Position numbers and translations under genes: made by a program
Notes under the pieces: generated by a model
The model's database searches: none
What the model was told of the DNA's origin: nothing
The model's input: only the letters and a program-made list of their open reading frames with translations
Assembly: GCA_963812015.1 (NCBI GenBank)
Contig: CAWETI010000002.1
Location: 448,001 to 512,000 of the forward strand
Direction: 5' to 3'
Length of the DNA: 64,000 nucleotides
From: an uncultured delta proteobacterium
GTDB lineage: Bacteria; Desulfobacterota; Desulfobaccia; Desulfobaccales; 0-14-0-80-60-11
Part shown: positions 9,753-34,927 of the stretch, one piece after another
Layout: every line of letters begins with the position of its first letter
How positions within the stretch are numbered: position 1 is the stretch's first letter

Positions 9753-9907
9753 AAGAAGTAAACTGTGCCTTAGGAAAATTTTGGCATTTTTCCCCGGATG
9801 TCATTCTCTGCCCTAAATCAACTACCCATCATATTGATGGAAGTGCTTTGATATCCATATCATATCTCCACACGAACTATCTCTGCAGCTGAAGTCACCC
9901 AGGTAAG

Positions 9908-10120
9908 AGGCCCTGAAACGACCCCAAAAGGCTTAAAGAACCCCTACCCTTACTCTGACCATTAGTCGGCTGGCTTGCGTTGAAATTTGGCTCGATAAAA
10001 GGACCGTACGTTGCTGTTTTTGGCCATCGCCGCCATCAACCTGAACGCCTCCTGGCCTTATACCGTCAGAAGCTAGAAAAAATAATGCAGCCAACCTAAA
10101 GGGGACCAGGTTTAGTGTGG
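9908..10120. repeat. Intergenic ~210 bp repeat, copy A
   Basis: Colinear with 16020-16231; last 32 bp identical (agccaacctaaaggggaccaggtttagtgtgg). Confidence 0.9.
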
Positions 10121-13157: not shown

Positions 13158-13286
13158 GTCGGCTGGCGATCATTGGAAATTGGGCCGATCCAAGGGCCAT
13201 ACGTTGGTGTTTTAGTCATTGCCACCATCAACTTGAACGCCGACTGGCCTTGTACCGTCAGATACCAGAAACAATCAAAGCCGACC
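13158..13286. repeat. Intergenic repeat, diverged partial copy B
   Basis: gtcggctggc...ccatcaacttgaacgcc...taccgtcaga...agccgacc matches the central part of copies A and C. Confidence 0.8.
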
Positions 13287-15975: not shown

Positions 15976-16019
15976 ATCTCCATAATTTTCCCTGAAGTGG
16001 TGCCCCGTAGATTGCTAAA

Positions 16020-16231
16020 AGGCCCTGAAACGACTCCCAAAGGCATCAAGAACCCTCAACCCTACCCTGACCATGAGTCGGCGGGCGATCGTTAAAATTT
16101 AGGCCAAAAAAAGGACCGTACCTGGTGTTTTTGGCCACTGCCGCCATCAACCTGAACGCCGCCTATCCCTAAACCGTCAGAAACCAGAATAAATATTGAA
16201 GCCAACCTAAAGGGGACCAGGTTTAGTGTGG
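16020..16231. repeat. Intergenic ~210 bp repeat, copy C
   Basis: Direct-repeat partner of 9908-10120. Confidence 0.9.
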
Positions 16232-17770: not shown

Positions 17771-18100
17771 GGAGGTTGACTCGGATAGGATCATGACGGA
17801 GCCACTCCACGCGGCGTGCTCGTCCGGCGTGAAGGCCGAGGCCACTGGGGCGACCGGTAACGGCTGTGGTGGGATCAAGGCCCATCCGCGATTGGGCTTT
17901 TAGGGCAAATCCGGGTCCTTAGAGGATTGGAGGTAGAATTGCTTTTCTTCTTCGGCTTGAATTTTTAAATTATCTAAACACCCTTATGTTGAAATAATAA
18001 AAAAGATATCTAATATTAGGAAAGACAATACTTTCTATTATCTCAGCTTTTGTGCCATTTTGCATCCCTGAAGCACCGATCTGAAAAGGAGGGCATGAAG

Positions 18101-20317
18101 ATGCGGTCTGGAAAGCAGTTGTTCCTCGGGTTTACTCTGCTTCTTCTTATACCCCTTTGGTTCACATTCGTCAGCTTAGCCATAACTGATCAACAATATG
18201 AAATCATGGGATTGATTGCGGTTTTAGAAAATCCGAACTCTTCCTATAAAGATAGGGAAGCCGTTATAGACAGATTGCAGGATATTGGCCAACCGGCCGT
18301 TCCTGCCCTCATCAAGGTTCTGAAGAATAAAGATACTAATATCGATCATAGGAGGGCAGCTGCTGGTGCCTTGGGACATATAGGTCCGGCGGCCAAAGAA
18401 GGGATTCCCACACTCATCACAGCCCTGTGGGATAGGGACTCGGGGCTTCGATATAATGCTGCCCTTGCCCTGGGACGAATGGGTCCGGCGGCAAAAGAGG
18501 CAATTCCGGCATTAGTAGCGGCCTTCAAAAATGATTATATAAAGGAACGCGAGGATGTTGCCACTGATCTCTTACAAATAGTGGAATTGGAGAAAAATCT
18601 GAGCAGCGCCGCCTTGAAGGAGAAAATCTCCTTGCTGGAGAATCTCCGAGAAACCATTTTCAAAGACTTCAATGAATCCCCAGAATCCGATGATTACAAA
18701 CAAAAAGAATTGGTGGACAAATTAAACCTGATGCTCAGGACAGTGAAGGCAGAATATGAAATAAAGCCTTCTGTCTTGCGCGAATTGTTTGACGAATACA
18801 AGAGTAAAAGCTGGGCCCGGGCCATGGCCGGTTATGTGGCGTTACTTGTGGTAGTGCTTCCCACATGGCTCCTGCTCTTTTGGCTTAATCCCCTATGGTT
18901 ATATCGGATCAATGAATTGTTATCTCCTCTTAGTATCAAGATTAAGCCTCTTGACCGGCCACTGGGACTAAACCAAATATTAATTCTTTCACCGTTCTAT
19001 TACTGCAACCGGATCCTGGATGCTTGGGTGCAGGACCATCTGAGCAATACGAAGGCAAACTTTGCCGCACTGAAAACCGTCCGGGACAGAGCCGTGCACG
19101 TGCCCGTCCCTGTCACCCTAAACGGCCACATAATGGCCCTGCCATCCCCTAAGGATTTCTGTGAGGTCTTCCGAAAAATTCCGTTCTGTATGCTTATTTG
19201 GGGTGAGGGTGGCTCGGGAAAGACCAGCCTGGCCTGCCAATTGGCCCACTGGGCCTTGGCTGGGGAACCAGAATCAGCCTTAGCCAGACACCCCATGCTT
19301 CCCGTCTTGTTAGAATACGATTTGGGCCAGCATACCCCGCTGGAAGCCATAAGCAAACAGATTGAAATAATGACCGGAGGCGAGAAAATCGCACCATCTT
19401 TGATCGATCACCTGCTCAGGCGGCAGCGCCTCCTGGTGTTCGTGGACCATTATTCGGAAATGAACTTGGAAACTCGGGAGCGCTTACAACCAGGATACGA
19501 TCCCCAACTCCCACTGCACGCTATGATTGTCACTTCACGACAAAAGGAAGAGTTTCGGGGGGTAGTTACCGATACACTCAATCCTTTGCGGATCCGAGGT
19601 AACCGTCTTTCCTCTTTCCTGGAGGCTTATCTAACCCAGCTCGGCAAACGGGAACTCTATGATGACACAGAATTTTTTGCCGCCTGCGGCCGCTTGACCG
19701 AGATGGTGGGCGATCGTAACCTCACCGTCTTGCTGGCCCGGATGTTTGCCGATCAGATGATTGCCACCAAGGAAGATCCTATATTTGAGGGCCTCCCAAA
19801 AAACATCCCCGACCTAATTCTCATTTACCTGAATTGGATAAACCGTCACGAATCTGACAAAAATCCGGGAAATAGGACGGTTCAGCGTATCGCCAAGGCC
19901 ATCTCCTGGGTGAGTCTTGAGCCTACCTTCCGGCCCACAGATGCCAACCTAGCTGCCATTCACACCGCCCTGGCTGATGAACCGAACCTGGACCAGAAAT
20001 TGGACTACCTCAGCCGCGACCTGGGGATTTTCCAGATTGTCGGTCCGTCTGAAGACAAGGTCCGAGTTTCCCTAGACCCCGTGGCCGAGTATTTGGCTGG
20101 CCTATGCCTGTTGGAATTGTATGGCGCCGAGGAGGCACAGTGGCGGGCGTTTCTGGAGGCGGCTGATAACAAGGAAGGCGCCCCCAAATCTATAGAAGGT
20201 TTTCTGCTTGCCTTGCGGGATTGCTGTTTGGCCAAAGGCGAAGACTACAATGTTCCCGGATTTGTGGAGCATGAACTGGCTCAAAAGGCAGGCATTCTTG
20301 ATAGCAAAACCGGCTAA
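18101..20317 (+). CDS. Signal peptide + HEAT repeats + TM helix + NACHT/STAND-like P-loop NTPase
   Basis: AAGALGHIGPAAKEGIPTL and AALALGRMGPAAKEAIPAL repeats; TM VALLVVVLPTWLLLFWL; Walker A GEGGSGKT; Walker B LLVFVD. Confidence 0.8.
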   Translation: MRSGKQLFLGFTLLLLIPLWFTFVSLAITDQQYEIMGLIAVLENPNSSYKDREAVIDRLQDIGQPAVPALIKVLKNKDTNIDHRRAAAGALGHIGPAAKEGIPTLITALWDRDSGLRYNAALALGRMGPAAKEAIPALVAAFKNDYIKEREDVATDLLQIVELEKNLSSAALKEKISLLENLRETIFKDFNESPESDDYKQKELVDKLNLMLRTVKAEYEIKPSVLRELFDEYKSKSWARAMAGYVALLVVVLPTWLLLFWLNPLWLYRINELLSPLSIKIKPLDRPLGLNQILILSPFYYCNRILDAWVQDHLSNTKANFAALKTVRDRAVHVPVPVTLNGHIMALPSPKDFCEVFRKIPFCMLIWGEGGSGKTSLACQLAHWALAGEPESALARHPMLPVLLEYDLGQHTPLEAISKQIEIMTGGEKIAPSLIDHLLRRQRLLVFVDHYSEMNLETRERLQPGYDPQLPLHAMIVTSRQKEEFRGVVTDTLNPLRIRGNRLSSFLEAYLTQLGKRELYDDTEFFAACGRLTEMVGDRNLTVLLARMFADQMIATKEDPIFEGLPKNIPDLILIYLNWINRHESDKNPGNRTVQRIAKAISWVSLEPTFRPTDANLAAIHTALADEPNLDQKLDYLSRDLGIFQIVGPSEDKVRVSLDPVAEYLAGLCLLELYGAEEAQWRAFLEAADNKEGAPKSIEGFLLALRDCCLAKGEDYNVPGFVEHELAQKAGILDSKTG

Positions 20318-23418: not shown

Positions 23419-26379
23419 CTACACCCCGGCTCCCTCATAAGTGGCCCCGAAGATAGTGTCCGACAGCCACTTCTTGAAGCTGGGGTTGTCGCTGAACTGC
23501 TTGAACAGCTCGGTATCATCTGCCAGCATGCCGATGACCACCTTCTGGAGCGCCCGGTCGTGCTCTAGCCGCGCCGCCGCCTTGTCGGAGTTTCTCATGG
23601 CATTTTGGTAAGCCTTGTCGGCCGCCACCTTTGCAGGGATTTCCTCAGAGATGACCTGGCGAATCCGGTCTGCGTCCTTCCAATTGATGTTACCGAACTG
23701 ATCGTTGAAGGCCTTGATGATGTTGCTGAGCCTGTCAAGTTCCGGTTCGGGCTTCCCCCCACCGCCGCTGGTGGGTACGGGTCCGATCTCTGCGTTCTGG
23801 TCAGGCAGCGCCAGCGTCAAGGCCTCCTGCACCTCGACTCGGTAACTGTCCATGTCGATAGTTTCGAGGATGCCTTTGGACAGGTCATCCTCCTTCGGAG
23901 CTGGCAGTTTAGGGATGAGGAAGTTCAGGAAGGTCGCCAGCTTCTCCCACTCCGCGTTGGTGTACGGCAGGATCGAGGCCAGGAACTGATAGGTCCGCAC
24001 AAATGCCTTCGCTTTGCCCTTGAAGTCCACCTGACCGTCCTCGTCCAGATCGCTCTTGTAGACGGCCACGCAGGCGTCGAGGATGGGGTCCAGCTTGTCC
24101 CGATCGGCGCCGCCGAGGAACAGCTCTACCAAATACTCCACCTGCGGCCACGCATAGACTTGGTAACCGTCCAGGGTCGCCTTCAAATCATGCAGTTTGT
24201 TCGGGTCGGTCTCCTCGCTGAGTATCGTTGTGCGGTAGTAGTCGGCGAAGGCCTGCGTGATGGTGTCGGCATCGTTCAGGAAGTCCAGCACAAAGGTGTC
24301 CGTCTTCTGGGGACGGGCCCGGTTTAGCCGCGACAGCGTCTGCACCGCCTTGATGCCCGCCAGCTGCTTGTCCACGTACATCGTGTGCAGCAGTGGCTCG
24401 TCGTAGCCGGTCTGGAACTTGTCCGCCACGATCAGGAACCGGTAAGGGTCCTGCTGGAACTTCTTTTCGATCTGGGCGCTTGGAAAGCCGTTAAGCTTTG
24501 CCTCGGTCACCTTCCGGCCGCCGTCTTCATGCTCACCTGAGAAGGCCACGATGGCCTCGTATGGGCTCTTGCGCTCTTGCAGGTAGGCCTTAAAGGCATG
24601 GTAATACTGGATTGCCCGGGCGACACCGCTGGTGACCACCATGGCGCGGGCTTGCCCGCCGATTTTTCGCCTGGCGATAACCTGCTCATGGAAGTGGTCG
24701 ATCATGATCTCAGCCTTCTGGCGGATCGCATAGTCGTGTGATTCGACGTAACGCCGCAGCTTTTTCCTGGCCCTCTTCGTGTCAAACTCCGGGTCGTCTT
24801 CCACCTTCTTCATCAGCCGGTAGTAGCTCTCAACCGGGGTATAGTTGGCCACCACGTCCAGTATAAACCCCTCTTGTATGGCCTGCTTCATGGTGTAGCT
24901 ATGGAAGGGCCGATGTCTGACCTTGTCTCCCTCCGGCACCGGCTCGCCGAAGATCTCCAATGTCTTGTTTTTGGGCGTGGCTGTGAAGGCGAAGTAGCTG
25001 GCGTTGGGCAGCATCTTCCTGGCTTCCATGATCCGGTTGATCCGGTCCTCAAAGGTGTCGTCGTCGTCCTTGCCGCCTTGTTCGGCCAGCGCTATACTCA
25101 TCTTCGCTGACGTTTGTCCACCCTGTCCGGAGTGGGCTTCATCGATGATAATGGCGAACTTCCGGCCCCGGTGCTCATCGCCGATCTTTTCCAGGACGAA
25201 GGGAAATGTCTGGATCGTCGAAATGATGATCTTTTTGCCACCGCTGAGATAGTTAGTCAGTTGCTTCGCCTTTGAACTTCCCGTGCCCTCTTTAACAGCG
25301 CCAATGGTGGCCGATACTTGGGCAAATTGCCTTATGGTTTCACGAATCTGCTTGTCCAGCACCTGGCGGTCGGTGACCACGATCACTGAGTCGAACCGGG
25401 GTTTTCCGCCCTCTTTCAGGCCGATGAGTTGGTGCGCCAGCCAGGCGATGGAGTTGCTCTTGCCGCTGCCGGCCGAGTGCTGGATCAGATACCGATGGCC
25501 AACTCCTCTTGCCTGGGCGTCGGCCAAGAGCTTATGCACCACGTCGAGCTGATGGTACCGTGGAAAGATCTGCTTGTGTTTCTTTTTCCCCTTGTCGTCC
25601 TTTTCCTCCACCACCTGGGCGTAGTTCTCGATGATGTCCGTAAGCCCAGCCTTGGTCAAAATCTGCTTCCAAAGGTAGTCCGTCTTGATGCCGCTTTCGT
25701 TGGGCGGGTTGCCGGCCCCGTCGTTAACGCCTTTGTTGAAAGGCAGAAACCACGAATCCTTCCCCCTCAGGTGCGTGCACATCCGCACTTCCTGGTCGTC
25801 CAGGGCGAAGTGCACCATGCAGCGGCCAAACTGAAACAACAGTTCCTTGGGTTCCCGGTCCCGCTTATACTGCTGCACCGCATCGTGCACGGTCTGTTTG
25901 GTCAGACGGTTTTTGAGCTCAAAGGTGGCGACCGGCAGGCCGTTGATGAAGAGGCCCAGGTCCAGGGCGAGCTGGGTCTCGTCCTTGCTGTAGCGAAGTT
26001 GCCGGGTGACGCTGAAGAGGTTGGCCGCGAAGCGTTTCTCGGCCTTGAGGTTGGCCGGGGTGGGCGTGCCGTAGAACAGGTCCAGGCTCACCGGCCCATG
26101 CTTGACCCCGTTACGCAGCACGTCGATGACGCCCCGCCGGGCGATCTCCCCCTGGAGCCGGTGGAGGAACTGGGTCTGCTTGGGGCCCTCCTGGGTTAGG
26201 TCCAGGGCCGCGGCTGCCTTGGGCTGGGTGGCCTCCAGAAAGGCCGTGAGCTTGGCCAAGTCCACTGCGTGATCCCGGTCGTAGTCTTCGCTTCGGCCCT
26301 GCTGATAGCCGGCCTCATCCACCAGGCAGGCGACGATCAGGGTCTCCAGGCCTTTTTCACTGGTGTCAGTCGTCGGCAT
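23419..26379 (-). CDS. hsdR: Type I restriction endonuclease subunit R
   Basis: NGLPVATFELKN nuclease motif, HSAGSGKS, IIDEAH, FTATP, TGYDEP, QTLSRLNR. Confidence 0.95.
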   Translation of the reverse strand: MPTTDTSEKGLETLIVACLVDEAGYQQGRSEDYDRDHAVDLAKLTAFLEATQPKAAAALDLTQEGPKQTQFLHRLQGEIARRGVIDVLRNGVKHGPVSLDLFYGTPTPANLKAEKRFAANLFSVTRQLRYSKDETQLALDLGLFINGLPVATFELKNRLTKQTVHDAVQQYKRDREPKELLFQFGRCMVHFALDDQEVRMCTHLRGKDSWFLPFNKGVNDGAGNPPNESGIKTDYLWKQILTKAGLTDIIENYAQVVEEKDDKGKKKHKQIFPRYHQLDVVHKLLADAQARGVGHRYLIQHSAGSGKSNSIAWLAHQLIGLKEGGKPRFDSVIVVTDRQVLDKQIRETIRQFAQVSATIGAVKEGTGSSKAKQLTNYLSGGKKIIISTIQTFPFVLEKIGDEHRGRKFAIIIDEAHSGQGGQTSAKMSIALAEQGGKDDDDTFEDRINRIMEARKMLPNASYFAFTATPKNKTLEIFGEPVPEGDKVRHRPFHSYTMKQAIQEGFILDVVANYTPVESYYRLMKKVEDDPEFDTKRARKKLRRYVESHDYAIRQKAEIMIDHFHEQVIARRKIGGQARAMVVTSGVARAIQYYHAFKAYLQERKSPYEAIVAFSGEHEDGGRKVTEAKLNGFPSAQIEKKFQQDPYRFLIVADKFQTGYDEPLLHTMYVDKQLAGIKAVQTLSRLNRARPQKTDTFVLDFLNDADTITQAFADYYRTTILSEETDPNKLHDLKATLDGYQVYAWPQVEYLVELFLGGADRDKLDPILDACVAVYKSDLDEDGQVDFKGKAKAFVRTYQFLASILPYTNAEWEKLATFLNFLIPKLPAPKEDDLSKGILETIDMDSYRVEVQEALTLALPDQNAEIGPVPTSGGGGKPEPELDRLSNIIKAFNDQFGNINWKDADRIRQVISEEIPAKVAADKAYQNAMRNSDKAAARLEHDRALQKVVIGMLADDTELFKQFSDNPSFKKWLSDTIFGATYEGAGV

Positions 26380-27769
26380 CGGTCACCTCCTCGCCGAGTT
26401 CCCCCTCGTCCTCTCCGACCACCTCGTCGTCCAGGCCTTCGTCCAGTTCCTCCGGCTCGGCCTCGGCTTCCATGGCCTTCAGGGGCGGGGCTAGGTGCCG
26501 CACGTCCACCTTGCCGGTCACCACGTCGGCAATCAATCGCGTCCGGTACTCCCGGATCAGGTCGATCTCGCGGCTTGCCTTGTCGATTGCCGCCTGCAGA
26601 GTCGCCGTTTGCTCGCCGATCTGGGCAATGATTGCTCTCTGTTCATCGTACGTCGGTGGATACGTAACGGCCAGGTTGCCAATGAAGGTCCAGTCCGCAC
26701 GCGGCATCTTCGCACCAAAGGTCGAGCTGTTGATCAGGTTGATGAACTGCTTTGAACGCAGCTTCTGTTCCAGAAACTCAGGGAGAATGCCTGGTTTGAC
26801 GATCCGCAGAACCAGAAACTCGCCAACACATACTCCTCGCATCTGTGGCCTCGCTACCTTGGCGAGGTAAGGCCGCAGCTTTCCGAACAAGACGTCATTG
26901 GACTGAAACCGCTTTACCTGACTGTCGAAGGCGACCTCACCGTCCGGGAGCATGATTCGTCCGGTCCAGCTTTCAATATGCTCGAGGGCAACGTACACAT
27001 CATCAGGCAGTTTGGAGCCTGTCTGCTCGTTCACATTCCTGACGAGGAACTTGAGCCGTCGCTGTTCCCAGTGCCCTGGGATGTCGCCGAGCCAGTCGAT
27101 GCCAGAGGGTTTGAGGGGGACGTTGGGATCGAGACCGCGGGTCACGGCCCGGTTAATGATGGCCTGCTTCTGCTCGTCTAACACCTCGATTAGCCGCCGC
27201 CGGTTGCGGATGAGCCGGCGAACCTTGCGGTCCATGGAGTCAATGAAGCGGACTATGGTATCCACTTCATCACTTGGGGGGGCAGCTACGTGAATCGCCC
27301 CAAACCGGTCCCCATACAATCGCAGGAAACCCGAGCCAACGCCCTTGGATTCAGCGAGGAATTTCGCCACCATTCCAGGAGAACGAAGAAGGTAGCCAAG
27401 GAACCATGGATTTATGCCGTTCAGAGGCGTTAACACCGCATAATCGGGGCTCACGAGACCCTGCTCTGGCGCAATGTGGAACATTCCACTCCAAGCCTGC
27501 ATCCGATTCATTCCGACTTCACCAGAACGGCAAATTTTATAGCCGACGAGTGTCGATGCGGCGTGCATCTTATCTGTTGCCTCCGCATGACGGATGAGAC
27601 CACGTTTTCTGGTCATCGACAGAAGCGGTTCCTCTGCGGTTGTGGATCGACGATCAACTTCACGCAGCAATGTCTTGAGCCGACGAACCTCCCAATGCGT
27701 CGGCACTTGACCAATCCATGGTAGGCCGGAGTCCTTGTATTCTGGATATGGTTTCAGACTGCCCGTCAT
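26366..27769 (-). CDS. hsdS: Type I R-M specificity subunit S
   Basis: Two TRDs with conserved KDSGLPWIGQVP and KPSGIDWLGDIP repeats; EYRTRLIADVVTGK. Confidence 0.93.
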   Translation of the reverse strand: MTGSLKPYPEYKDSGLPWIGQVPTHWEVRRLKTLLREVDRRSTTAEEPLLSMTRKRGLIRHAEATDKMHAASTLVGYKICRSGEVGMNRMQAWSGMFHIAPEQGLVSPDYAVLTPLNGINPWFLGYLLRSPGMVAKFLAESKGVGSGFLRLYGDRFGAIHVAAPPSDEVDTIVRFIDSMDRKVRRLIRNRRRLIEVLDEQKQAIINRAVTRGLDPNVPLKPSGIDWLGDIPGHWEQRRLKFLVRNVNEQTGSKLPDDVYVALEHIESWTGRIMLPDGEVAFDSQVKRFQSNDVLFGKLRPYLAKVARPQMRGVCVGEFLVLRIVKPGILPEFLEQKLRSKQFINLINSSTFGAKMPRADWTFIGNLAVTYPPTYDEQRAIIAQIGEQTATLQAAIDKASREIDLIREYRTRLIADVVTGKVDVRHLAPPLKAMEAEAEPEELDEGLDDEVVGEDEGELGEEVTDADD

Positions 27770-29898
27770 GCCCCCGCCGCCCCCACAATCTGTTCCAACA
27801 GGCCCTCACCTTCGGCCTGAAGGGCTTCCAGATCGGCCCTGATCTCCGTAAGTGAGCGCAGCGGCTGGGGCTTGTAAAAGTGCCGGGTAAAGGAAATCTC
27901 TTAGCCGATCTGGGTCTTGGCGGGGTCGATCCAGGCGTCCGGCACGTGTGGCAGGACCTCCCGCCGGAAGAAGGCCTCAATGCCGCCCGCCTCCAGGAGT
28001 GGCACCTGCTCCGTATCCCTGAGGCTGCTGTCCGGCTCATACTCCGCCACCCTGGGCTTGCCACCGATTTCCCCTCCGTAGCGGCCATATAAGGGGGCCG
28101 CCTCCACCTTCCCCGGTTTGCTGATCTTCCGGATGACCGGCGAGGCGGTTGGATCGATGCTGGTGAGTTCGGATTGAAAAAGCTTCAGGCGCTTGGCGGT
28201 CAGGTTGACGCCTTGGTGGTCGGCATCCGCTTCGCACGCGGCCAGGACTCGGTTGAAATCCAAATGCGGCCCCGAGCCGAGACGCTTTGTCACCCGCCGC
28301 ACCAGGTGGGCCAGGGGCTCCTCCTTGGCTGCCTGGCAGGCTCTATCAAATCGCTCCAGCAAGGGGGCGCTCAGGTCGGTGGCCAGGCGCAAGGGACGCT
28401 CCACGGTAATCTTCCAGTAGCCGAAGGCCTCGTTGGGAAAGATCTTGGACTGGTCGGTCTCTTCAAAAGCCAGGAACATGTCGGTGATTTGCTTAATCTG
28501 GTCGTCGGACAGTTCGCAGTTCTTCTTGCCCAAGTTTTTGCGCAGCGGCTGGAAGATGGAGGTCGCGTCGATGAGCTGGACCTGGCCTCGGCGGGGCTCG
28601 GGCTTGCGGTTGGTGAGCACCCAGATATAGGTGGCGATGCCGGTGTTGTAGAACATGTTCAGGGGCAGGGCGATAATGGCCTCCAGCCAGTCATTCTCGA
28701 TGATCCAGCGGCGGATATTGCTCTCCCCCTGGCCGGCGTCGCCGGTGAACAGGGAGGAGCCGTTGTGAACCTCGGCGATGCGGCTGCCCAGGGGCGTATG
28801 GTGGTTCATCTTGGCCACCTTGTTCACCAGGAACATAAGCTGGCCGTCGCTGGAGCGGGTGATGAGGGAGAGCTCCTCGCCCTTAAGCTGAACTACAAAA
28901 CGGGGGTCGGCCAGGTCCTTCTTGCCCCCCATGCGTTCCAGGTCGGTCTTCCAGCTCTTGCCGTACGGTGGATTGGAGAGCATGAAGTCGAACTCTCTGG
29001 CCAAAAAGTCGTCCGTGGAGAGCGTCGAGCCGAATTTGATGTTCTCGGCGGCCTGGCCTTCGCCTTTTAGCAGTAGGTCGGCTTTGCAGATGGCGTAGGT
29101 TTCGGCGTTGACCTCCTGGCCGAACAGGTGAATGGAGACTTCCTTGCCGTGTTCCCGGGCGAGTTGGTCCAGAGTTTCCTCAGCCACGGTGAGCATCCCA
29201 CCGGTGCCGCAGGCGCCGTCGTATACCCGGTAGGTGGCGTCGAGGATGTCCCCGGCAATGGGCCTGAAGATCAGGTTAGCCATGAGCTTCACCACATCCC
29301 GAGGCGTGAAGTGCTCGCCGGCCTCCTCGTTGTTTTCTTCGTTGAACCGGCGGATCAGCTCCTCAAAGATCGTGCCCATGGCATGGTTGTCCAGGCCGGG
29401 CAGGCGCAGGTTCCCGTCCTGGTTGAACACGGGGTTGGGGCTGAGGTTGATATCGTTGGAGGTGAACTTCTCGATGAGACTGCCAACGATATCAGCATCG
29501 ACGAGCGTCTGGATCTGGTTACGGAACTTGAATTTTTCCAGGATCTCCTGGACGTTGGGCGAAAAGCCGTCCAGGTAGGCCTCGAAGTCGGCCTTGAGTT
29601 GCTGCTGCTTGGCCCGGGCCCGGAGGTCTTTAAGGGTGAACGGGGAGATGTTGTAGAAGGCGTTCCCGGCAGTCTGACAGAGCGCGTCGCCTTTGTTGGC
29701 GACGCCTGCTGCGTCGAGCTGTTTATTGAGTTTGAGGACGGCTTCCTTGGTTGGCTCCAACACCGCGTCAAGCCGGCGGATGACGGTCATGGGCAGGATC
29801 ACATCCCGGTACTTGCCCCGGACATACACATCCCGGAGGACATCATCGGCAATGTTCCAGATGAATCCGGCAATCCAATTGACGTCTCCGTTTGACAT
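27766..29898 (-). pseudogene. hsdM: Type I R-M methyltransferase M subunit with premature TAA at 27901-27903
   Basis: GEHFTPR, YDGACGTGGML, NPPY; frame reads KTQIG*EISFTRHFY... to a TGA overlapping the hsdS ATG. Confidence 0.88.
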
Positions 29899-30841
29899 GC
29901 ATGCCTCCGTAGGGTTCTCAGAGCCCTGATGTGTTGAAGTATTTGCTGACTCTCTCGTCGGCCACCATGGTGTGAAGGCCGGAGGATTAAAATTCCCCTT
30001 GACCATGGCCCAGGTGGGAGCAAGGAGAAGATATTGCCGCCCAGCCGCTGCCTCTCTTCGACATGAGGCGCCTGCCATCAACCTGAAAGAAGCTTTAACT
30101 TATACCTATATTCCCAACTGGACTTAATAGTCAACAAATCTCGGATGATATCCGTTTGAAGATCACTAAGTCCGCCGCCGACAAAGCAGGCGACCCCAGT
30201 AAGGTGACGGTGAGTGCCAACCCTATACTTTCCATGAGGTTGGACCTGCCAGAGTCGATTTCTTAAAGCTTCTCCGCACCATTCCCGGCGCTGCAATTTA
30301 AAGACCCCAATGATCCCTTGCACATGGTGTTGGTCCGGGACATGTGGCTCACCAATTTTGGAGTCCCCTGCCCCAAACGCCCCCTCGCTTGACAAGCCAG
30401 AGTCCTATGCTATGGGCCATTTCTCCAATAACAGATATCTTCCTAGTCCTTAATTAACCAATTCCCCATTGCCATTTCTGGTCTTCCTAAAGCTCTCCCT
30501 GATGGTCCAGGCTGCGGCCCCAATCCGTGTCCGAGAGAATTGCCAACCAAAACATACCTGGTCATAGGAGAGCGACTTTGAGGCCCTGGAGGTTAATCTT
30601 GCATGCGTAAAAAACAGATGGATGTCGATGATCGCCGGGAACCAGTCTGGTGGTTCTCTCCTTTCCCTAAGGGTACGCCACTCCTATTGCAGACTTAGAG
30701 ACCTGTGCTTTCATACCCTAAGGGAAAGTTGTAACGGCCATGAATGCGCTAACAGAGCGGATGTCAAGCCAAGGGCGTGGAGGAAGAAGGGGGCCGGGCT
30801 TAGCTGCCCTACTCCTACCCCCTCAAAAAAATAAAATAAAT

Positions 30842-30867
30842 TTGACACCGGGGGGGGCGCTTATAAC
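30842..30867 (+). promoter_or_regulatory. Sigma70-like promoter with poly-G spacer upstream of the RT unit
   Basis: A-rich UP element, TTGACA, ccG8cgct, TATAAC (14-bp spacer). Confidence 0.45.
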
Positions 30868-31165
30868 AAAGCTCAGCTAGTAAGTTCAGGCCCAGTAAGG
30901 GTTTTGGGACTTTTTGCGGCCAGAAGTCACCTCCATTGACGTGAAAATAACTGGGTTTACCATGGCTCTTATGGCACGGGAAGAAAGATCATCTGCCCTG
31001 GTCTCGTTGGCAAAAGCGCTGTTCTCCCGGCCGACCATGGTGGAGTCCCAGGAAAGTGGTCCGTGGTTACCGGGGCAACGGTATTACCCTAGGGAATCTA
31101 TTCCCCCTGGCATTAAATCGCCGGTTCATGAGGGCCGGGACGAAGGAGGTGATCGATGCAATCAA

Positions 31166-32341
31166 ATGATGAATAAGATCTGCTCCCAGGATAACCTGCG
31201 GAATGCCTTCCGGAAGGTCGCAAAGAACAAAGGAAGTTCCGGGATCGACGGCGTGACCACTCAGGAGTTTGGTTCCTCCCTAAATGTCAACCTGACCACG
31301 CTGGCCAAGGAACTACTGTCAGGCCAGTATCAGCCACAATCCGTAAAGCGGGTATGGATCCCTAAGCCCGGCAGCACGGAAAGGAGACCGTTAGGAATCC
31401 CCACAGTCCGAGATCGTGTGGTTCAGGCTGCTGTGCTCCATGAGATTGAACCCATATTTGAAAGCTGCTTTGCGGATAACAGCTATGGGTTCCGGCCAGA
31501 CCGGGGAGCCACAGGCGCCTTACGGCGGGTAGACACCTTGCTAAAGGACGGCTATTGGCATGTGGTGGATGCGGATATCAAGGCATACTTCGACACGATA
31601 CCGCATGAGGCACTACTGGAGCTGGTGAGGAGGAGGGTCCATGATGAAAGAGTTATCCGGCTCATCCGGGCCTTCCTGGAAGCCGGAGTCATGGAGGATG
31701 GGGCGTCACTGTACCTGCCGGAGGAGGGTACACCACAGGGGGGAGTCATCAGTCCCCTGCTGGCTAATATTTACCTAGATCCCTTGGATCACGCAATGGT
31801 GAGACAGGGCTTGGCAATGATCCGGTACGCCGATGACTTCGTTATTCCGTGCCATAGCCGTAATGAAGCAGGGATGGCTTTGGATATGGTGATGGAATGG
31901 ATGGCGGCGGCGGGGCTTACTCTGCATCCAACCAAGACCAAGATAGTGGATGTGTATCAACCCGGTGATAACTTCGAATTCTTGGGCTACCGCTTCGAGG
32001 AGGATCGTCGCAGTCCCCGGGAGAAGAGCGTTGAGAAGCTGAAGGAATCTGTCAGGGCAAAGACCACTCGCCGTCGGCGGGGTAGCCTGGTGGAGGTCAT
32101 CCAGGACATCAACCAAGTGCTGATAGGCTGGTTTGAGTATTTCCGGCACAGCACAGAGGCCCAGGTCTTCCAAGATCTGGATGTGTGGGTGGCCGGCAGG
32201 TTGCGTAATGTAATGCGCTGGCGGTTTGTCTCAGGAAGAACACGCTGCCAGACTCTCTGGCCGGATGCCCGTTTCAACGACCAAGGGCTCTTTTCCTTAG
32301 GTAATGCCCACGACCGGATGGCTTCCAGGGACTGGAACTGA
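31166..32341 (+). CDS. Group II intron-type reverse transcriptase/maturase (RT0-7 + X domain, no endonuclease)
   Basis: NKGSSGIDG, RPLGIPTVRDRVVQ, SYGFRP, DADIKAYFDTI, GTPQGGVISPLLANIYL, RYADDF, FLGY, GWFEYF; frame open from 30914, start uncertain. Confidence 0.93.
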   Translation: MMNKICSQDNLRNAFRKVAKNKGSSGIDGVTTQEFGSSLNVNLTTLAKELLSGQYQPQSVKRVWIPKPGSTERRPLGIPTVRDRVVQAAVLHEIEPIFESCFADNSYGFRPDRGATGALRRVDTLLKDGYWHVVDADIKAYFDTIPHEALLELVRRRVHDERVIRLIRAFLEAGVMEDGASLYLPEEGTPQGGVISPLLANIYLDPLDHAMVRQGLAMIRYADDFVIPCHSRNEAGMALDMVMEWMAAAGLTLHPTKTKIVDVYQPGDNFEFLGYRFEEDRRSPREKSVEKLKESVRAKTTRRRRGSLVEVIQDINQVLIGWFEYFRHSTEAQVFQDLDVWVAGRLRNVMRWRFVSGRTRCQTLWPDARFNDQGLFSLGNAHDRMASRDWN

Positions 32342-33175
32342 ACCGGAGTTGATGAGCTGGGAGTTCCTCTGGAGGAACCAGCGATAGTTATCATGATCAT
32401 AAGCCCGGCTCCAACTGGGAAAGGTAATCTATTAACCACTAACCTGCTGACCGATATCGGCGGCAGTACTGATCACCAGCAGCCTTGCTCTTCGGCCTTA
32501 CCAACCCCGGCGAGGGGTGTTGAAGATGATGAGCAGATGCTGGTCTTGAAAATGATTATCCGGTGCCGCCTCTTCGGGGCTGCCAGAAAATCTACAACCT
32601 GGAGGGCTTGAGTTGTGGAGTTGGAGCACGACCACGGCGGCAGTATTGTATGACGCCGACGACTCCACCAAGCCACCAAAGACATGATCACTGGGCTCGG
32701 CTTCTTATAACGCCTGTCTGGAGATCATCCGCCCGGAAAACGGGTATCACGGAACTGGATCACCAACAGGATCGACAATTTCAGATCAGCACTGATTCTG
32801 GAAGAAGCACTGTTGGGGAAAATGTTAATTCCGGCGACCGGCCTCTTTAGACTGGTCCCGGCGGAGGTTGAACGGACAGTGCCCGAATTTTCCCTCCGAA
32901 GACAGACCACAAAAATCCTGGCAACGGGACTGCCACTAGAGCAACACCAGCTCCAGGTGGCAAGATCTCAGTTAAACAGACCGGGGCCGACTTGATGTTG
33001 GTACAAGCCTTGCCGGGCGTGACCGACAAAAAAGAACCCGTTGCCGGTGATGATGTGGTTCATAAATCAAATAAAACAACCGTCATCTGGAAATGACCAG
33101 AAATGATAATCCCAGTTGTACTCCATCTGGCAATATTAAAAGTTGGAAGCTGGCCCGGGCACGAGGAAACTATAG

Positions 33176-33406
33176 ATGGAAGAATATCTCACAGCAAAAG
33201 AATTGAGCAAACGCATAAAGATGGCTGATGGAACTATCCGCAACCTCGTGTGCAAGGGAGTGTTTGTAAAAGGCAAACACTATGTGAAACCGACACCAAG
33301 AAAGTTGTTATTTATTTGGAGTGGAATAGAGGGATGGCTCCATGGCACCAGTGATTGTTGCCCTGAAATGATAGGAGGTAATGGTAATTGTTTGATCAAT
33401 ATATAA
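33176..33406 (+). CDS. Excisionase/AlpA-like HTH protein
   Basis: YLTAKELSKRIKMADGTIRN; directly upstream of integrase. Confidence 0.75.
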   Translation: MEEYLTAKELSKRIKMADGTIRNLVCKGVFVKGKHYVKPTPRKLLFIWSGIEGWLHGTSDCCPEMIGGNGNCLINI

Positions 33407-33503
33407 AGAGCATTCATTTGACATCGGCCACTGTTTCAAGTTACCATGAACGTGGTGACATCCAAACAAAAGGGAGGTGGTTGGAAAGGCGGAGGGCTTG
33501 TTA

Positions 33504-34760
33504 ATGGAACATGCGCAGATCATCGATTTTCCCAAGGGAAAAGCGGATAACCACCAACCGAAAACCCCAGACCGGCTAAATGCCGGGAAAACCGGCAGGG
33601 TGTACAGCCGGGGAGGCAAGCTCTGGGTAGACTTTTATTATCTGGGCGAACGGGTCCGGGAGCGTTCAGGGCTCGATGACACCCGAGCTAATCGGGAATT
33701 CCTCCGGAAGAGGTTGGACCTTATCGTATCCCAGATTGATAATGGGATCTTTGAATTTGGCAAAAGCTTTTCACACAGCAAAAAGGTGGCGCATTTCACC
33801 AGCCTGGAGGGAAGAACCTTCCGGAAGGACCCGAAGGATATCACCTTCAATAAATATGCGGAGCAATGGTGGACAGAGATGCACCCAGGCATGAGCGCCA
33901 GCCAGGCAAGGGACTACACCAGCATTTTGAAGGTCCATCTCATGCCTTACTTCGGGCAGCTGCCCTTCTGCGAGTTCCGGCCAGTGCTCATGAAGAAATT
34001 TCTGGCCCACCTGCAGACAAAAAGGACGCCTGGGGGAAAGCCCTTGTCTGGCAAGCGCATCCACAATATTTTGATTCCCTTGCGGGTGATCTTTACCGAT
34101 GCATGCGGGGAATACGGCTGGAATGATCTGGCGGACCCTTTTGCTGGGCTCAAGTTACCCAACGTCAAGAAAATTCGCATTCACCCTTTCACCATCGAGG
34201 AGTGGGCTATCCTGATGGAGTTCATCCCGGCGTGGTACAGGCCGTACTTCGAACTGGCGGTGCTGACGGGAATGAGGCCGTCGGAGCAGGTGGCATTAAA
34301 ATGGTCAGCGGTTGACGATCAGTTTATCCACATCGAATTAAGCCGTGTAAGAAACCAGGAAAAGGCTGAGCTGAAAACAGCCGCCAGCAATCGCCGGATT
34401 GAAATCCGGCCATCCATGAAGAAGATCCTGGAGCAGCAAAAAAAGCAAACCGAGGGATTTCAAACTCCCTATGTCTTTATCAATACCGCAGGAAGGCCGA
34501 TCCTCCAGGACAAACTGCGGGAACTGTGGAGACGGACTGTCAGAAGGAGCCAACTGCTTTACCGGAGGATGTATGAGACCCGCCATACCTTTGCTTCCTG
34601 GGCATTGGCGGCGGGGGAGTCCCCGGAGTGGGTGGCCAGGACCCTGGGACACGTAAATACTTCAATGGTCTATAATACCTACGGGCGCTACATCCCCAAC
34701 CTGACCAGACAGGACGGCTCGGCTATCGAAGGTTTATGGGCTGGGGCGAGAGGAGAATAA
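33504..34760 (+). CDS. Tyrosine site-specific integrase with arm-binding domain
   Basis: LTGMRPSE, YETRHTFAS, LGH, YGRY; adjacent to tRNA 3' end. Confidence 0.93.
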   Translation: MEHAQIIDFPKGKADNHQPKTPDRLNAGKTGRVYSRGGKLWVDFYYLGERVRERSGLDDTRANREFLRKRLDLIVSQIDNGIFEFGKSFSHSKKVAHFTSLEGRTFRKDPKDITFNKYAEQWWTEMHPGMSASQARDYTSILKVHLMPYFGQLPFCEFRPVLMKKFLAHLQTKRTPGGKPLSGKRIHNILIPLRVIFTDACGEYGWNDLADPFAGLKLPNVKKIRIHPFTIEEWAILMEFIPAWYRPYFELAVLTGMRPSEQVALKWSAVDDQFIHIELSRVRNQEKAELKTAASNRRIEIRPSMKKILEQQKKQTEGFQTPYVFINTAGRPILQDKLRELWRRTVRRSQLLYRRMYETRHTFASWALAAGESPEWVARTLGHVNTSMVYNTYGRYIPNLTRQDGSAIEGLWAGARGE

Positions 34761-34771
34761 GTCAACCTGGA

Positions 34772-34793
34772 TAGGCACAATTTTAGGCACAAT
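34772..34793. repeat. Tandem 10-bp direct repeat, probable integrase arm-type sites
   Basis: TAGGCACAAT-tt-TAGGCACAAT between int stop and tRNA. Confidence 0.6.
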
Positions 34794-34850
34794 GACCAAA
34801 ATCCGGGTCACTCTAATGAGATAACTACTTTAAATATCTAACTAATTAAT

Positions 34851-34927
34851 TGGTCGGGGCGGCGGGATTTGAACCCGCGGCCTCTTGGTCCCAAACCAAG
34901 CGCGCTACCAGGTTGCGCCACGCCCCG
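34851..34927 (-). tRNA. tRNA-Pro(TGG)
   Basis: CGGGGCG acceptor stem, anticodon arm CTTGG-TTTGGGA-CCAAG, GGTTCAAATCC T-arm, CCA end. Confidence 0.97.

Follow-up and report, generated by a model that had tools for sequence, protein, structure and literature searches.

The 64,000-nt stretch of DNA analyzed here as a whole (hereafter the window; contig CAWETI010000002.1, positions 448,001 to 512,000, from an uncultured delta proteobacterium of the Desulfobaccales) carries a gene for a group II-type reverse transcriptase (RT), and catalytic intron RNA is absent on both sides of it. The gene lies in the core of an integrative island, where the order is block A, RT, block B, the excisionase-like gene xis, the tyrosine integrase gene int, and tRNA-Pro. 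Judged by its sequence, the product is a complete group II-type protein, and the small clade to which it belongs has intron-borne RTs as its sister group. We interpret it, with about even confidence, as a retained, free-standing, and intron-less RT of mobile group II intron origin that is carried as single-copy cargo in the island core. The gene is probably domesticated or at least selectively retained, and its main interest would then be that of a young example of the transition from an intron-encoded to a free-standing RT.

The reverse transcriptase gene and the missing intron RNA

The RT/maturase gene spans 31166-32341 on the plus strand and encodes 391 aa with an N-terminal extension (NTE)/RT0 loop, RT1-7, YADD at codons 221-224, an X/thumb domain, and no endonuclease (En) domain. 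Pfam matched RVT_1 (1.1e-39) and GIIM (7.7e-13) in the protein and nothing else, so that the scan gave no endonuclease domain, while the NCBIfam equivalog TIGR04416 (group_II_RT_mat) scored 391.8 bits at a cut-off of 300. These matches confirm a first-pass annotation, made from the letters of the DNA, which had described an intact RT/maturase of ~391 aa with YADD, PQGG, and an X domain and without En. The best match among solved structures was the intron-encoded GsI-IIC RT (6ar1), with 265 bits over residues 2-362, a span that shows both the N-terminal extension and the RT0 loop to be in place. PQGG and YADD are both invariant among the closest relatives, and the catalytic and X-domain residues are invariant in seven aligned clade members. 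The stop-free frame begins at 30914, upstream of the ATG at 31166, and one gene caller's version of the protein is 459 aa long; the ATG at 31166 agrees with the N-termini of close relatives and of the GsI-IIC RT. The RT region occurs as a single copy in the 3.96-Mb genome.

Long stretches on either side of the gene are gene-free, with 834 nt between RT and xis and 770 nt left of the RT that hold no credible gene. The upstream non-coding flank (30396-31165) contained no intron domains I to III (DI-DIII), and the downstream flank (32342-33175) contained no domains V and VI (DV/DVI). The Rfam family Intron_gpII (RF00029) had no match in the whole window at the gathering threshold and none at E<=10 in 29900-33600. 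In 15 of 15 control loci, whose RTs are 49-55% identical to the window RT, RF00029 with canonical DV/DVI was found ~40 nt past the open reading frame (ORF). The first-pass statement that no DV/DVI follows the stop codon was thus upheld by a search aimed at exactly such a hit.

The Rfam D1-D4 models missed both the window and the positive-control introns and were uninformative, and our own nhmmer profiles of related introns (59 upstream flanks, 72 downstream flanks) were used instead. Neither the 5' nor the 3' profile matched the window flanks, as the only match was to the last codons of the ORF. On independent loci, nine of them full-length and with RTs that share 46-53% identity with the window RT, the 5' profile reached E-values of 1e-107 to 1e-184; it reached ~1e-24 in two loci with RTs 39-40% identical, with weaker matches among relatives at 39-42%. 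The 3' profile reached 1e-26 to 1e-49, and 8e-12 in one locus cut by a contig end; it found DV in 17 of 18 control loci, the remaining locus (L009) having none. The ribozyme halves of the related intron class score 350-600 bits where RT identity is ~50%. Since the intron RNA is this well conserved in the related class, a decayed homologous copy at the window RT should be visible, and none is.

The genome encodes one other RT, on contig 3, which is 38% identical to the window RT and adjoins the only DV of the genome. As this DV has an RT of its own, there are no ORF-less introns for the window RT to serve. Among the features of a mobile group II intron, the RT0-7 and X/maturase protein was found at the window RT, and DV/DVI, DI-DIII, and multiple copies at varied sites were not. 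Relatives of the window RT occupy the same position beside xis.

Clade, same-genus relatives, and selection

A protein search with the RT returned thousands of homologues at ~55% identity, mostly on contigs of ~2 kb, a size typical of multi-copy introns. Closer homologues were few, with P0002-P0005 at 73-77% and P0007, P0009, and P0010 at 57-59% identity. These seven protein relatives are intact, whereas the same-genus copies described below are truncated. In a maximum-likelihood tree of 46 rows, with support given as SH-like approximate likelihood ratio test (SH-aLRT) values, the window RT grouped with P0002-P0005 (99), and this group was joined by P0007, P0009, and P0010 (96). The resulting clade was sister (92) to 28 sampled close matches, the type whose tested DNA loci are intron-borne, and the whole group received 100.

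The clade members that were aligned (P0002-5, P0007, and P0010) have a short N-terminus, without the extension of the intron-borne forms. Between the clade core (window RT and P0002-P0005) and the intron clade, the RT core had an identity of 0.54-0.61, the thumb/X one of 0.46, and the C-tail one of 0.37, while the intron-borne sample was evenly conserved by domain, at 0.68-0.76. The parts that in mobile introns serve the intron RNA and the DNA target, the thumb and the C-tail, thus appear to be those that have drifted or shifted in the RT clade.

Homologues of all three island core genes were found on contigs of equal size. An RT (P0004, 76%), an int (P0123, 84%), and an xis (P0243, 86%) are each listed on a JGI contig of 12,741 nt, and for an RT (P0010, 59%) and an xis (P0244, 82%) the listed JGI contig has 3,498 nt in both cases. 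The equal contig sizes, rather than contig sequence, suggest that an intact clade RT is carried beside xis, or xis and int, by two further islands or more. The DNA of nearer relatives was sought in several collections. Identities were 40-51% in one metagenome scan, at most 53% in viral contigs, at most 46% in plasmids, and at most 55% in a 400-genome sample of the phylum, while a genome-contig scan gave 57% at best among the matches listed. The 83 genomes of the order yielded only the G011 fragment, one of the copies described next.

In a DNA search of 40 related genomes, pieces of the region were found in three, all of the same genus (G003, G015, and G011). The G003 island is syntenic, with the block 30388-30770 kept at 74-76% and 30948-31005 at 82% identity, while the segment 30771-31165 aligns poorly as a whole. 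Its RT remnant comprises ~90 nt of RT codons 20-49 and includes a stop. The ~3 kb after the remnant encode a D5_N/NrS-1-polymerase-like primase-helicase in the same orientation (L194 6193-8480 (-), G003:C20), which is split into ORFs of 570 and 188 aa. Past the primase, the block 32445-32744 follows at 82%, 32745-32919 is deleted, and 32920-34882 is kept through xis and int at 85-88%, so that the conserved parts of the downstream flank are 32445-32744 and 32920-33175. In 30771-31165 and 32342-32444, the segments nearest to the RT, the short alignment of 30948-31005 with G003 was the sole homology available. In G015, RT codons 2-74 with a TGA are joined almost directly to 33014-33058, xis, and int. 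In G011, RT codons 84-370 are present at 82% nucleotide identity and are fused to an unrelated N-terminus, and the fragment is bordered by sequence located elsewhere in the window island.

The 5' intron profile had no match in the stretches of G003, G015, G011, G356, and G444, and the Rfam search found no DV in those of G003, G015, G011, and G356. As none of the relatives has intron RNA and the non-intron block A is common to them, loss of the ribozyme before the split of the window and G003 lineages is the parsimonious solution. If the ribozyme was gone before that split, selection has preserved the window ORF in its free-standing state. Against the G011 fragment (287 codons), the ratio of nonsynonymous to synonymous divergence (dN/dS) of the RT was 0.28 at a synonymous divergence (dS) of 0.51, a value that averages two lineages and has as its comparator a truncated copy, the sole relative with DNA. 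For comparison with G003, dN/dS was 0.15 for int (dS 0.61) and 0.18 for xis. In a neutral simulation with substitutions only, the probability that no stop arose in the RT frame was 0.006 at K=0.15 and fell to <=0.0004 at K>=0.25, so that an open frame is an unlikely neutral outcome at the divergence between these islands.

If the RT was retained in this way, the intron RNA would have been lost already in the common ancestor of the window island and its same-genus relatives. The open frame would then have been kept by purifying selection in the window lineage, with the constraint altered in the thumb and C-terminal parts. By analogy with known enzymes, an RT without intron RNA to sequester it could be active, as a free polymerase, on nucleic acids of the cell or on those that enter it. 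It may perform DNA break repair or gap filling through RT0-loop-dependent microhomology annealing, for which G2L4 and a YADD group II RT are the precedents. By the same analogy, within the retained-RT reading a repair-type polymerase would be the most likely role and phage defense beside the neighboring type I restriction-modification (R-M) system the second.

A possible but clearly less probable explanation is that the gene is a decaying relic, in which the ribozyme was deleted and a functionless ORF stays open by luck or because the loss was recent. Several observations fit a relic and weigh against retention. All three same-genus relatives are truncated, each in a different way (G011, G015, and G003), and among the 83 genomes of the order an intact copy is found in the window's genome only; with copies so truncated and rare, the gene is dispensable and often lost. 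No partner gene, effector domain, or conserved RNA was found for the RT. The sole GGAGG (31145-31149) lies 16 nt ahead of the RT ATG, which is long for a Shine-Dalgarno spacing. A promoter implied at 30842 by the first-pass annotation would have a 14-nt spacer and was absent from the list of a consensus promoter scan; the nearest listed site upstream of the RT was a 9/12 match at 30936. Immobilized introns, moreover, are described as common in bacteria by Park et al. 2022 (bioRxiv 10.1101/2022.03.14.484287). Three further points lie in the argument for retention itself. The case for selection presupposes a loss of the ribozyme that predates the split between window and G003, and 30771-31165 aligns poorly with G003. 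P0002-P0010 are represented by their proteins, so that loss of intron RNA is putative for the clade as a whole. A role in DNA repair is pure analogy; the RT has YADD, in place of the YIDD of G2L4, and is distant from G2L4.

Set against a relic is the fact that both ribozyme halves are traceless, yet 391 codons run without a stop or frameshift. A dN/dS of 0.28 and a probability of <=0.006 for a stop-free frame at K>=0.15 also argue against it, as do the residues that remain invariant across the seven aligned clade members and the two further intact members that apparently lie beside xis/int homologues. The first-pass argument that an intact ORF without intron RNA speaks against simple decay was strengthened by the same three lines of evidence (dN/dS, the improbable open frame, and the two apparently linked clade members), and the dN/dS measured against the G011 fragment was well away from the value near 1 that it had named as the sign of relaxed selection.

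Flanking DNA and the island

Hairpin-rich DNA had been noted on both sides of the RT in the first-pass annotation. This held for the downstream side, at one element, and failed for the upstream side, where the flank was no more stable than its shuffles, with z-scores of -0.19 (30396-30864) and -0.93 (30865-31170). The downstream flank 32342-33175 had a z-score of -5.96 (20 shuffles), and its signal came from one site, the 200-nt sliding window 32900-33099 on the plus strand (z -6.9). When 32895-33075 (181 nt) was folded alone, it reached -69 kcal/mol (z -5.63), a stability that none of 200 shuffles equaled. The multi-hairpin element itself (32905-33061, plus strand, ~160 nt) lies 560 nt downstream of the RT and 115-270 nt upstream of xis, and an outer stem (32905-32928/33037-33061) encloses three inner hairpins. 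Its G-U pairs favor the plus strand. In a two-sequence alignment with G003, four pairs were changed on both sides with pairing kept, three of them in hairpin H1.

Two alternative left arms, 32726-32745 and 32906-32928, can each pair with the right arm 33036-33059. The G003 deletion extends from one short ACGGG word to another, with loss of the sequence that lay between. Contigs of four DNA runs were compared with the region; one run covers the stretch throughout, and in two the matches are short and identical. In a wetland run, a contig of 343 nt spans 32655-32993 at ~92%, and a piece of the RT is present at ~82%. No informative joints were seen in the contigs of the four runs.

Because the blocks 30388-30770, 32445-32744, and 32920-33175 and the folded element are kept in G003, which has no live RT, they are assigned to the island backbone. 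On the strength of this conservation, the flank blocks and the element are island backbone and not RT-specific non-coding RNA (ncRNA), and the element upstream of xis is not a partner RNA of the RT. Most likely they serve xis-int as a leader or regulatory region, or act as a signal in replication. The first-pass proposal that the RT is paired with its own ncRNA(s) was accordingly not supported, as the upstream flank is unstructured and the folded element and conserved blocks persist beside a dead RT in G003. The case is also a caution that folded, conserved non-coding DNA beside an RT can belong to the xis-int or replication module of a mobile element and not to the RT.

These results bear directly on the idea of a defense RT with its own ncRNA, in which flanking RNA would serve as template or scaffold for complementary DNA (cDNA) on phage infection, as in DRT2, DRT9, and retrons. 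We consider this improbable. The RT is a single gene with long non-coding flanks that stands directly beside hsdMSR on a mobile island, and one strongly folded element lies downstream of it, but the upstream flank is unstructured, and G003, where the RT is dead, has kept both the element and the blocks. In PADLOC, RT_UG17 matched with 182 bits, while the best match was the generic RT model with 298 bits. The NCBIfam models Drt2 (54.6 bits, cut-off 390), Drt3a (73.4/200), Drt4 (29.6/450), Drt5 (27.8/550), and retron St85 (53.6/235) all scored far below their cut-offs, and neither an effector domain nor a partner gene accompanies the RT. Among the DRT/UG and retron families, no specific model thus scored above its cut-off with the RT.

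At its right end, the island is bounded by tRNA-Pro (TGG; 34851-34927, minus strand), which is the integration site and where homology with G003 and G015 stops at 34882. The tyrosine integrase int (33477-34760, plus strand) matches Phage_integrase, and Arm-DNA-bind_2, SAM-like, and catalytic domains were recognized by Pfam. The excisionase-like xis (33176-33406, plus strand) encodes a HTH_17-type protein of 76 aa; the window protein has no Pfam match, PF12728 was found in 4 of 120 listed homologues, and xis is 88% identical in G003. RT, xis, and int are co-oriented in a run that ends at tRNA-Pro, and the guanine-cytosine (GC) content steps from 0.65-0.71 right of tRNA-Pro to 0.45-0.62 within the island, in agreement with the first-pass placement of the RT beside xis-int inside an integrative element. 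The synteny it had wished to see checked is kept for int and xis in G003 and G015, but the RT is dead or truncated there. The next genes to the left of the RT are encoded on the opposite strand and form a type I R-M cargo (23419-30081, minus strand) with hsdR at 23419-26379, hsdS at 26366-27769, and hsdM at 27901-30081. No convincing copy of an att direct repeat of the tRNA end was found within the window, and the left island end is therefore not fixed.

The transfer-messenger RNA (tmRNA) gene (ssrA) is, at its 3' end, the integration site of related islands in G003, G015, and G356, while the window island is integrated at tRNA-Pro. The target sites compared were 34851-34882 of the window, L194 3013-3360, L195 3195-3543, and L213 2587-2643. 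The integrases of the tRNA-Pro and ssrA islands share 68-85% nucleotide identity, and both target 3' ends share GGCGGCGGGA.T.GAACCCGCG. In the RT flanks, a search for long repeats or iterons gave only short repeats at chance level, plus one 15-nt inverted repeat. Its arms (30661-30675/30714-30728) are 93% complementary, lie 38 nt apart, and are built on CCCTAAGG, a word that occurs a third time at 31085 (31085-31094). The repeat pair is largely kept in block A of G003 and may be an operator for a regulator of the island core operon. Left of the type I R-M system, in low-GC DNA, a 755-aa protein (18050-20317, plus strand) has HEAT repeats and a NACHT C-terminal helical domain (NCH4) and may be another defense-type gene of the same island. 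An intergenic repeat of ~200 nt occurs three times in the window (9881-10120, 16016-16231, and 13158-13275), with pieces also in G011 and G015. A further copy (G000:C3:739766-739911, 90% identical) lies ~115 nt past the 3' end of the one complete group II intron in the genome, on contig 3, and the repeat may be a miniature inverted-repeat transposable element (MITE)-like element or an intron target.

A broader form of domestication, which we rate as having a small chance of being correct, would make the window RT one member of a whole intron-less clade early in domestication. The clade would have been long kept, down to 57-59% identity, in the core of one tRNA/tmRNA-integrating island family, originally with a replication gene of PrimPol-like/D5 type and a folded signal of RNA or DNA next to it. 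It would serve the island, through replication priming, cDNA synthesis, or anti-phage activity, and not the host or an intron.

It is very unlikely that the RT is an enzyme of the island life cycle proper, acting in priming and cDNA synthesis or a DIRS-like route with an ancestral order of RT, PrimPol-like/D5-type primase-helicase, folded element, and xis-int. In G003, the D5_N/NrS-1-polymerase-like primase does follow the RT remnant in the same orientation and is itself followed by the folded element, and PrimPol-RT fusions exist according to PMC12439943. No remnant of the primase was found in the window by tblastn, so that the RT is intact without the primase in the window and dead with it in G003, a pattern that comes from a sample of two islands. 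G003 and G015, however, keep intact xis and int without a live RT, and integration therefore does not need the RT; opposite-strand cargo and the lack of terminal repeats fit for an RNA intermediate also speak against this route. Least probable of all is an atypical or split group II intron, with a ribozyme too divergent, displaced, or located elsewhere and the RT as a trans maturase, for although the GIIM/X domain is retained and trans-acting maturases are known in cyanobacteria and organelles, the window has no RF00029 match, the genome's one DV has its own RT, the DV of the sister clade is near-invariant and would be detected, the downstream flank is homologous to the backbone that follows the primase in G003, and divergence within the RT is greatest in the thumb and C-tail.

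Comparison with known reverse transcriptases

CRISPR-associated RTs, G2L4 repair polymerases, and some defense RTs arose from free-standing group II-like (G2L) RTs. To our knowledge, the known free-standing group II-like RTs are almost all old, deep lineages. The window RT still falls within a genuine clade of intron RTs, where its sisters are live and intron-borne and its cousins in the same genus are dead. From this position, it could show which protein parts change first after intron loss, with the thumb and C-tail diverging first in its clade, and whether selection keeps such an enzyme.

An assignment to the CRISPR-associated RTs (G2L1/G2L2) was rejected, as neither cas fusion or adjacency nor an array was seen. 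No cas families were present in the Pfam matches of 19 window ORFs (2 to 30081) or of the ORFs of 30078-34760, and no tandem array was seen in 30082-33480. A PADLOC match of Cas1_IIIb to the protein was restricted to the RT part.

The nearest mobile relatives are the sister-clade introns (e.g., loci L010-L089; Singulisphaera, Limisphaerales, and other genomes), whose RTs are 49-57% identical to the window RT and share its domain order, the lack of En, and YADD/PQGG. These introns have a 5' ribozyme of ~640 nt and DV/DVI ~40 nt past the stop, whereas the window RT has neither. They also have an N-terminal extension with a GGKWFSL motif and several copies per genome, and both are lacking at the window RT. 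In G403, a genome of the same family, a group II intron RT is present in 16 copies or more (e.g., C20:34577-43936), 15 of them equal-scoring and 39% identical to the window RT, so active introns do proliferate in this group.

For G2L4, the text of Park et al. 2022 (bioRxiv 10.1101/2022.03.14.484287) reports that this YIDD enzyme mends double-strand breaks through microhomology-mediated end joining, that a YADD group II RT does likewise through its RT0 loop, and that G2L4 genes are often near tyrosine recombinases. Such RTs probably derived, according to the same text, from introns immobilized in the genome. Like the Pseudomonas aeruginosa G2L4 RT as described there, the window RT is free-standing, has an RT0 loop and no D/En beyond a short tail, and lies near a tyrosine recombinase on possibly mobile DNA. 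It differs in having YADD and not YIDD and in its similarity, with 78 bits against the G2L4 RT structures (9d4s/9d5x) and 265 bits against the GsI-IIC RT. Long direct repeats upstream, which that text describes for G2L4, were not seen at the window RT. Membership in G2L4 was rejected on the YADD motif and the 78-bit similarity.

The G2L RTs as a whole were characterized by Simon & Zimmerly 2008 (PMC2602772) as group II-like RTs without domain V nearby, of which three classes keep the maturase motif. The window RT resembles them, so described, in grouping with group II RTs, in its X/maturase motif, and in being a single free-standing ORF with no domain V or intron RNA nearby. Unlike these RTs, it is not a deep separate lineage and is nested in a clade supported at 100% with intron-borne RTs at ~55% identity. 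Unlike classical G2L RTs, it passes the NCBIfam equivalog cut-off for group II RT/maturases. Compared by sequence with G2L4, the one reference used among G2L1-5, the window RT looks like the product of a much younger, independent intron loss than those of the G2L lineages. It would thus be a young, G2L-like free-standing enzyme, of a stand-alone kind that is already known.

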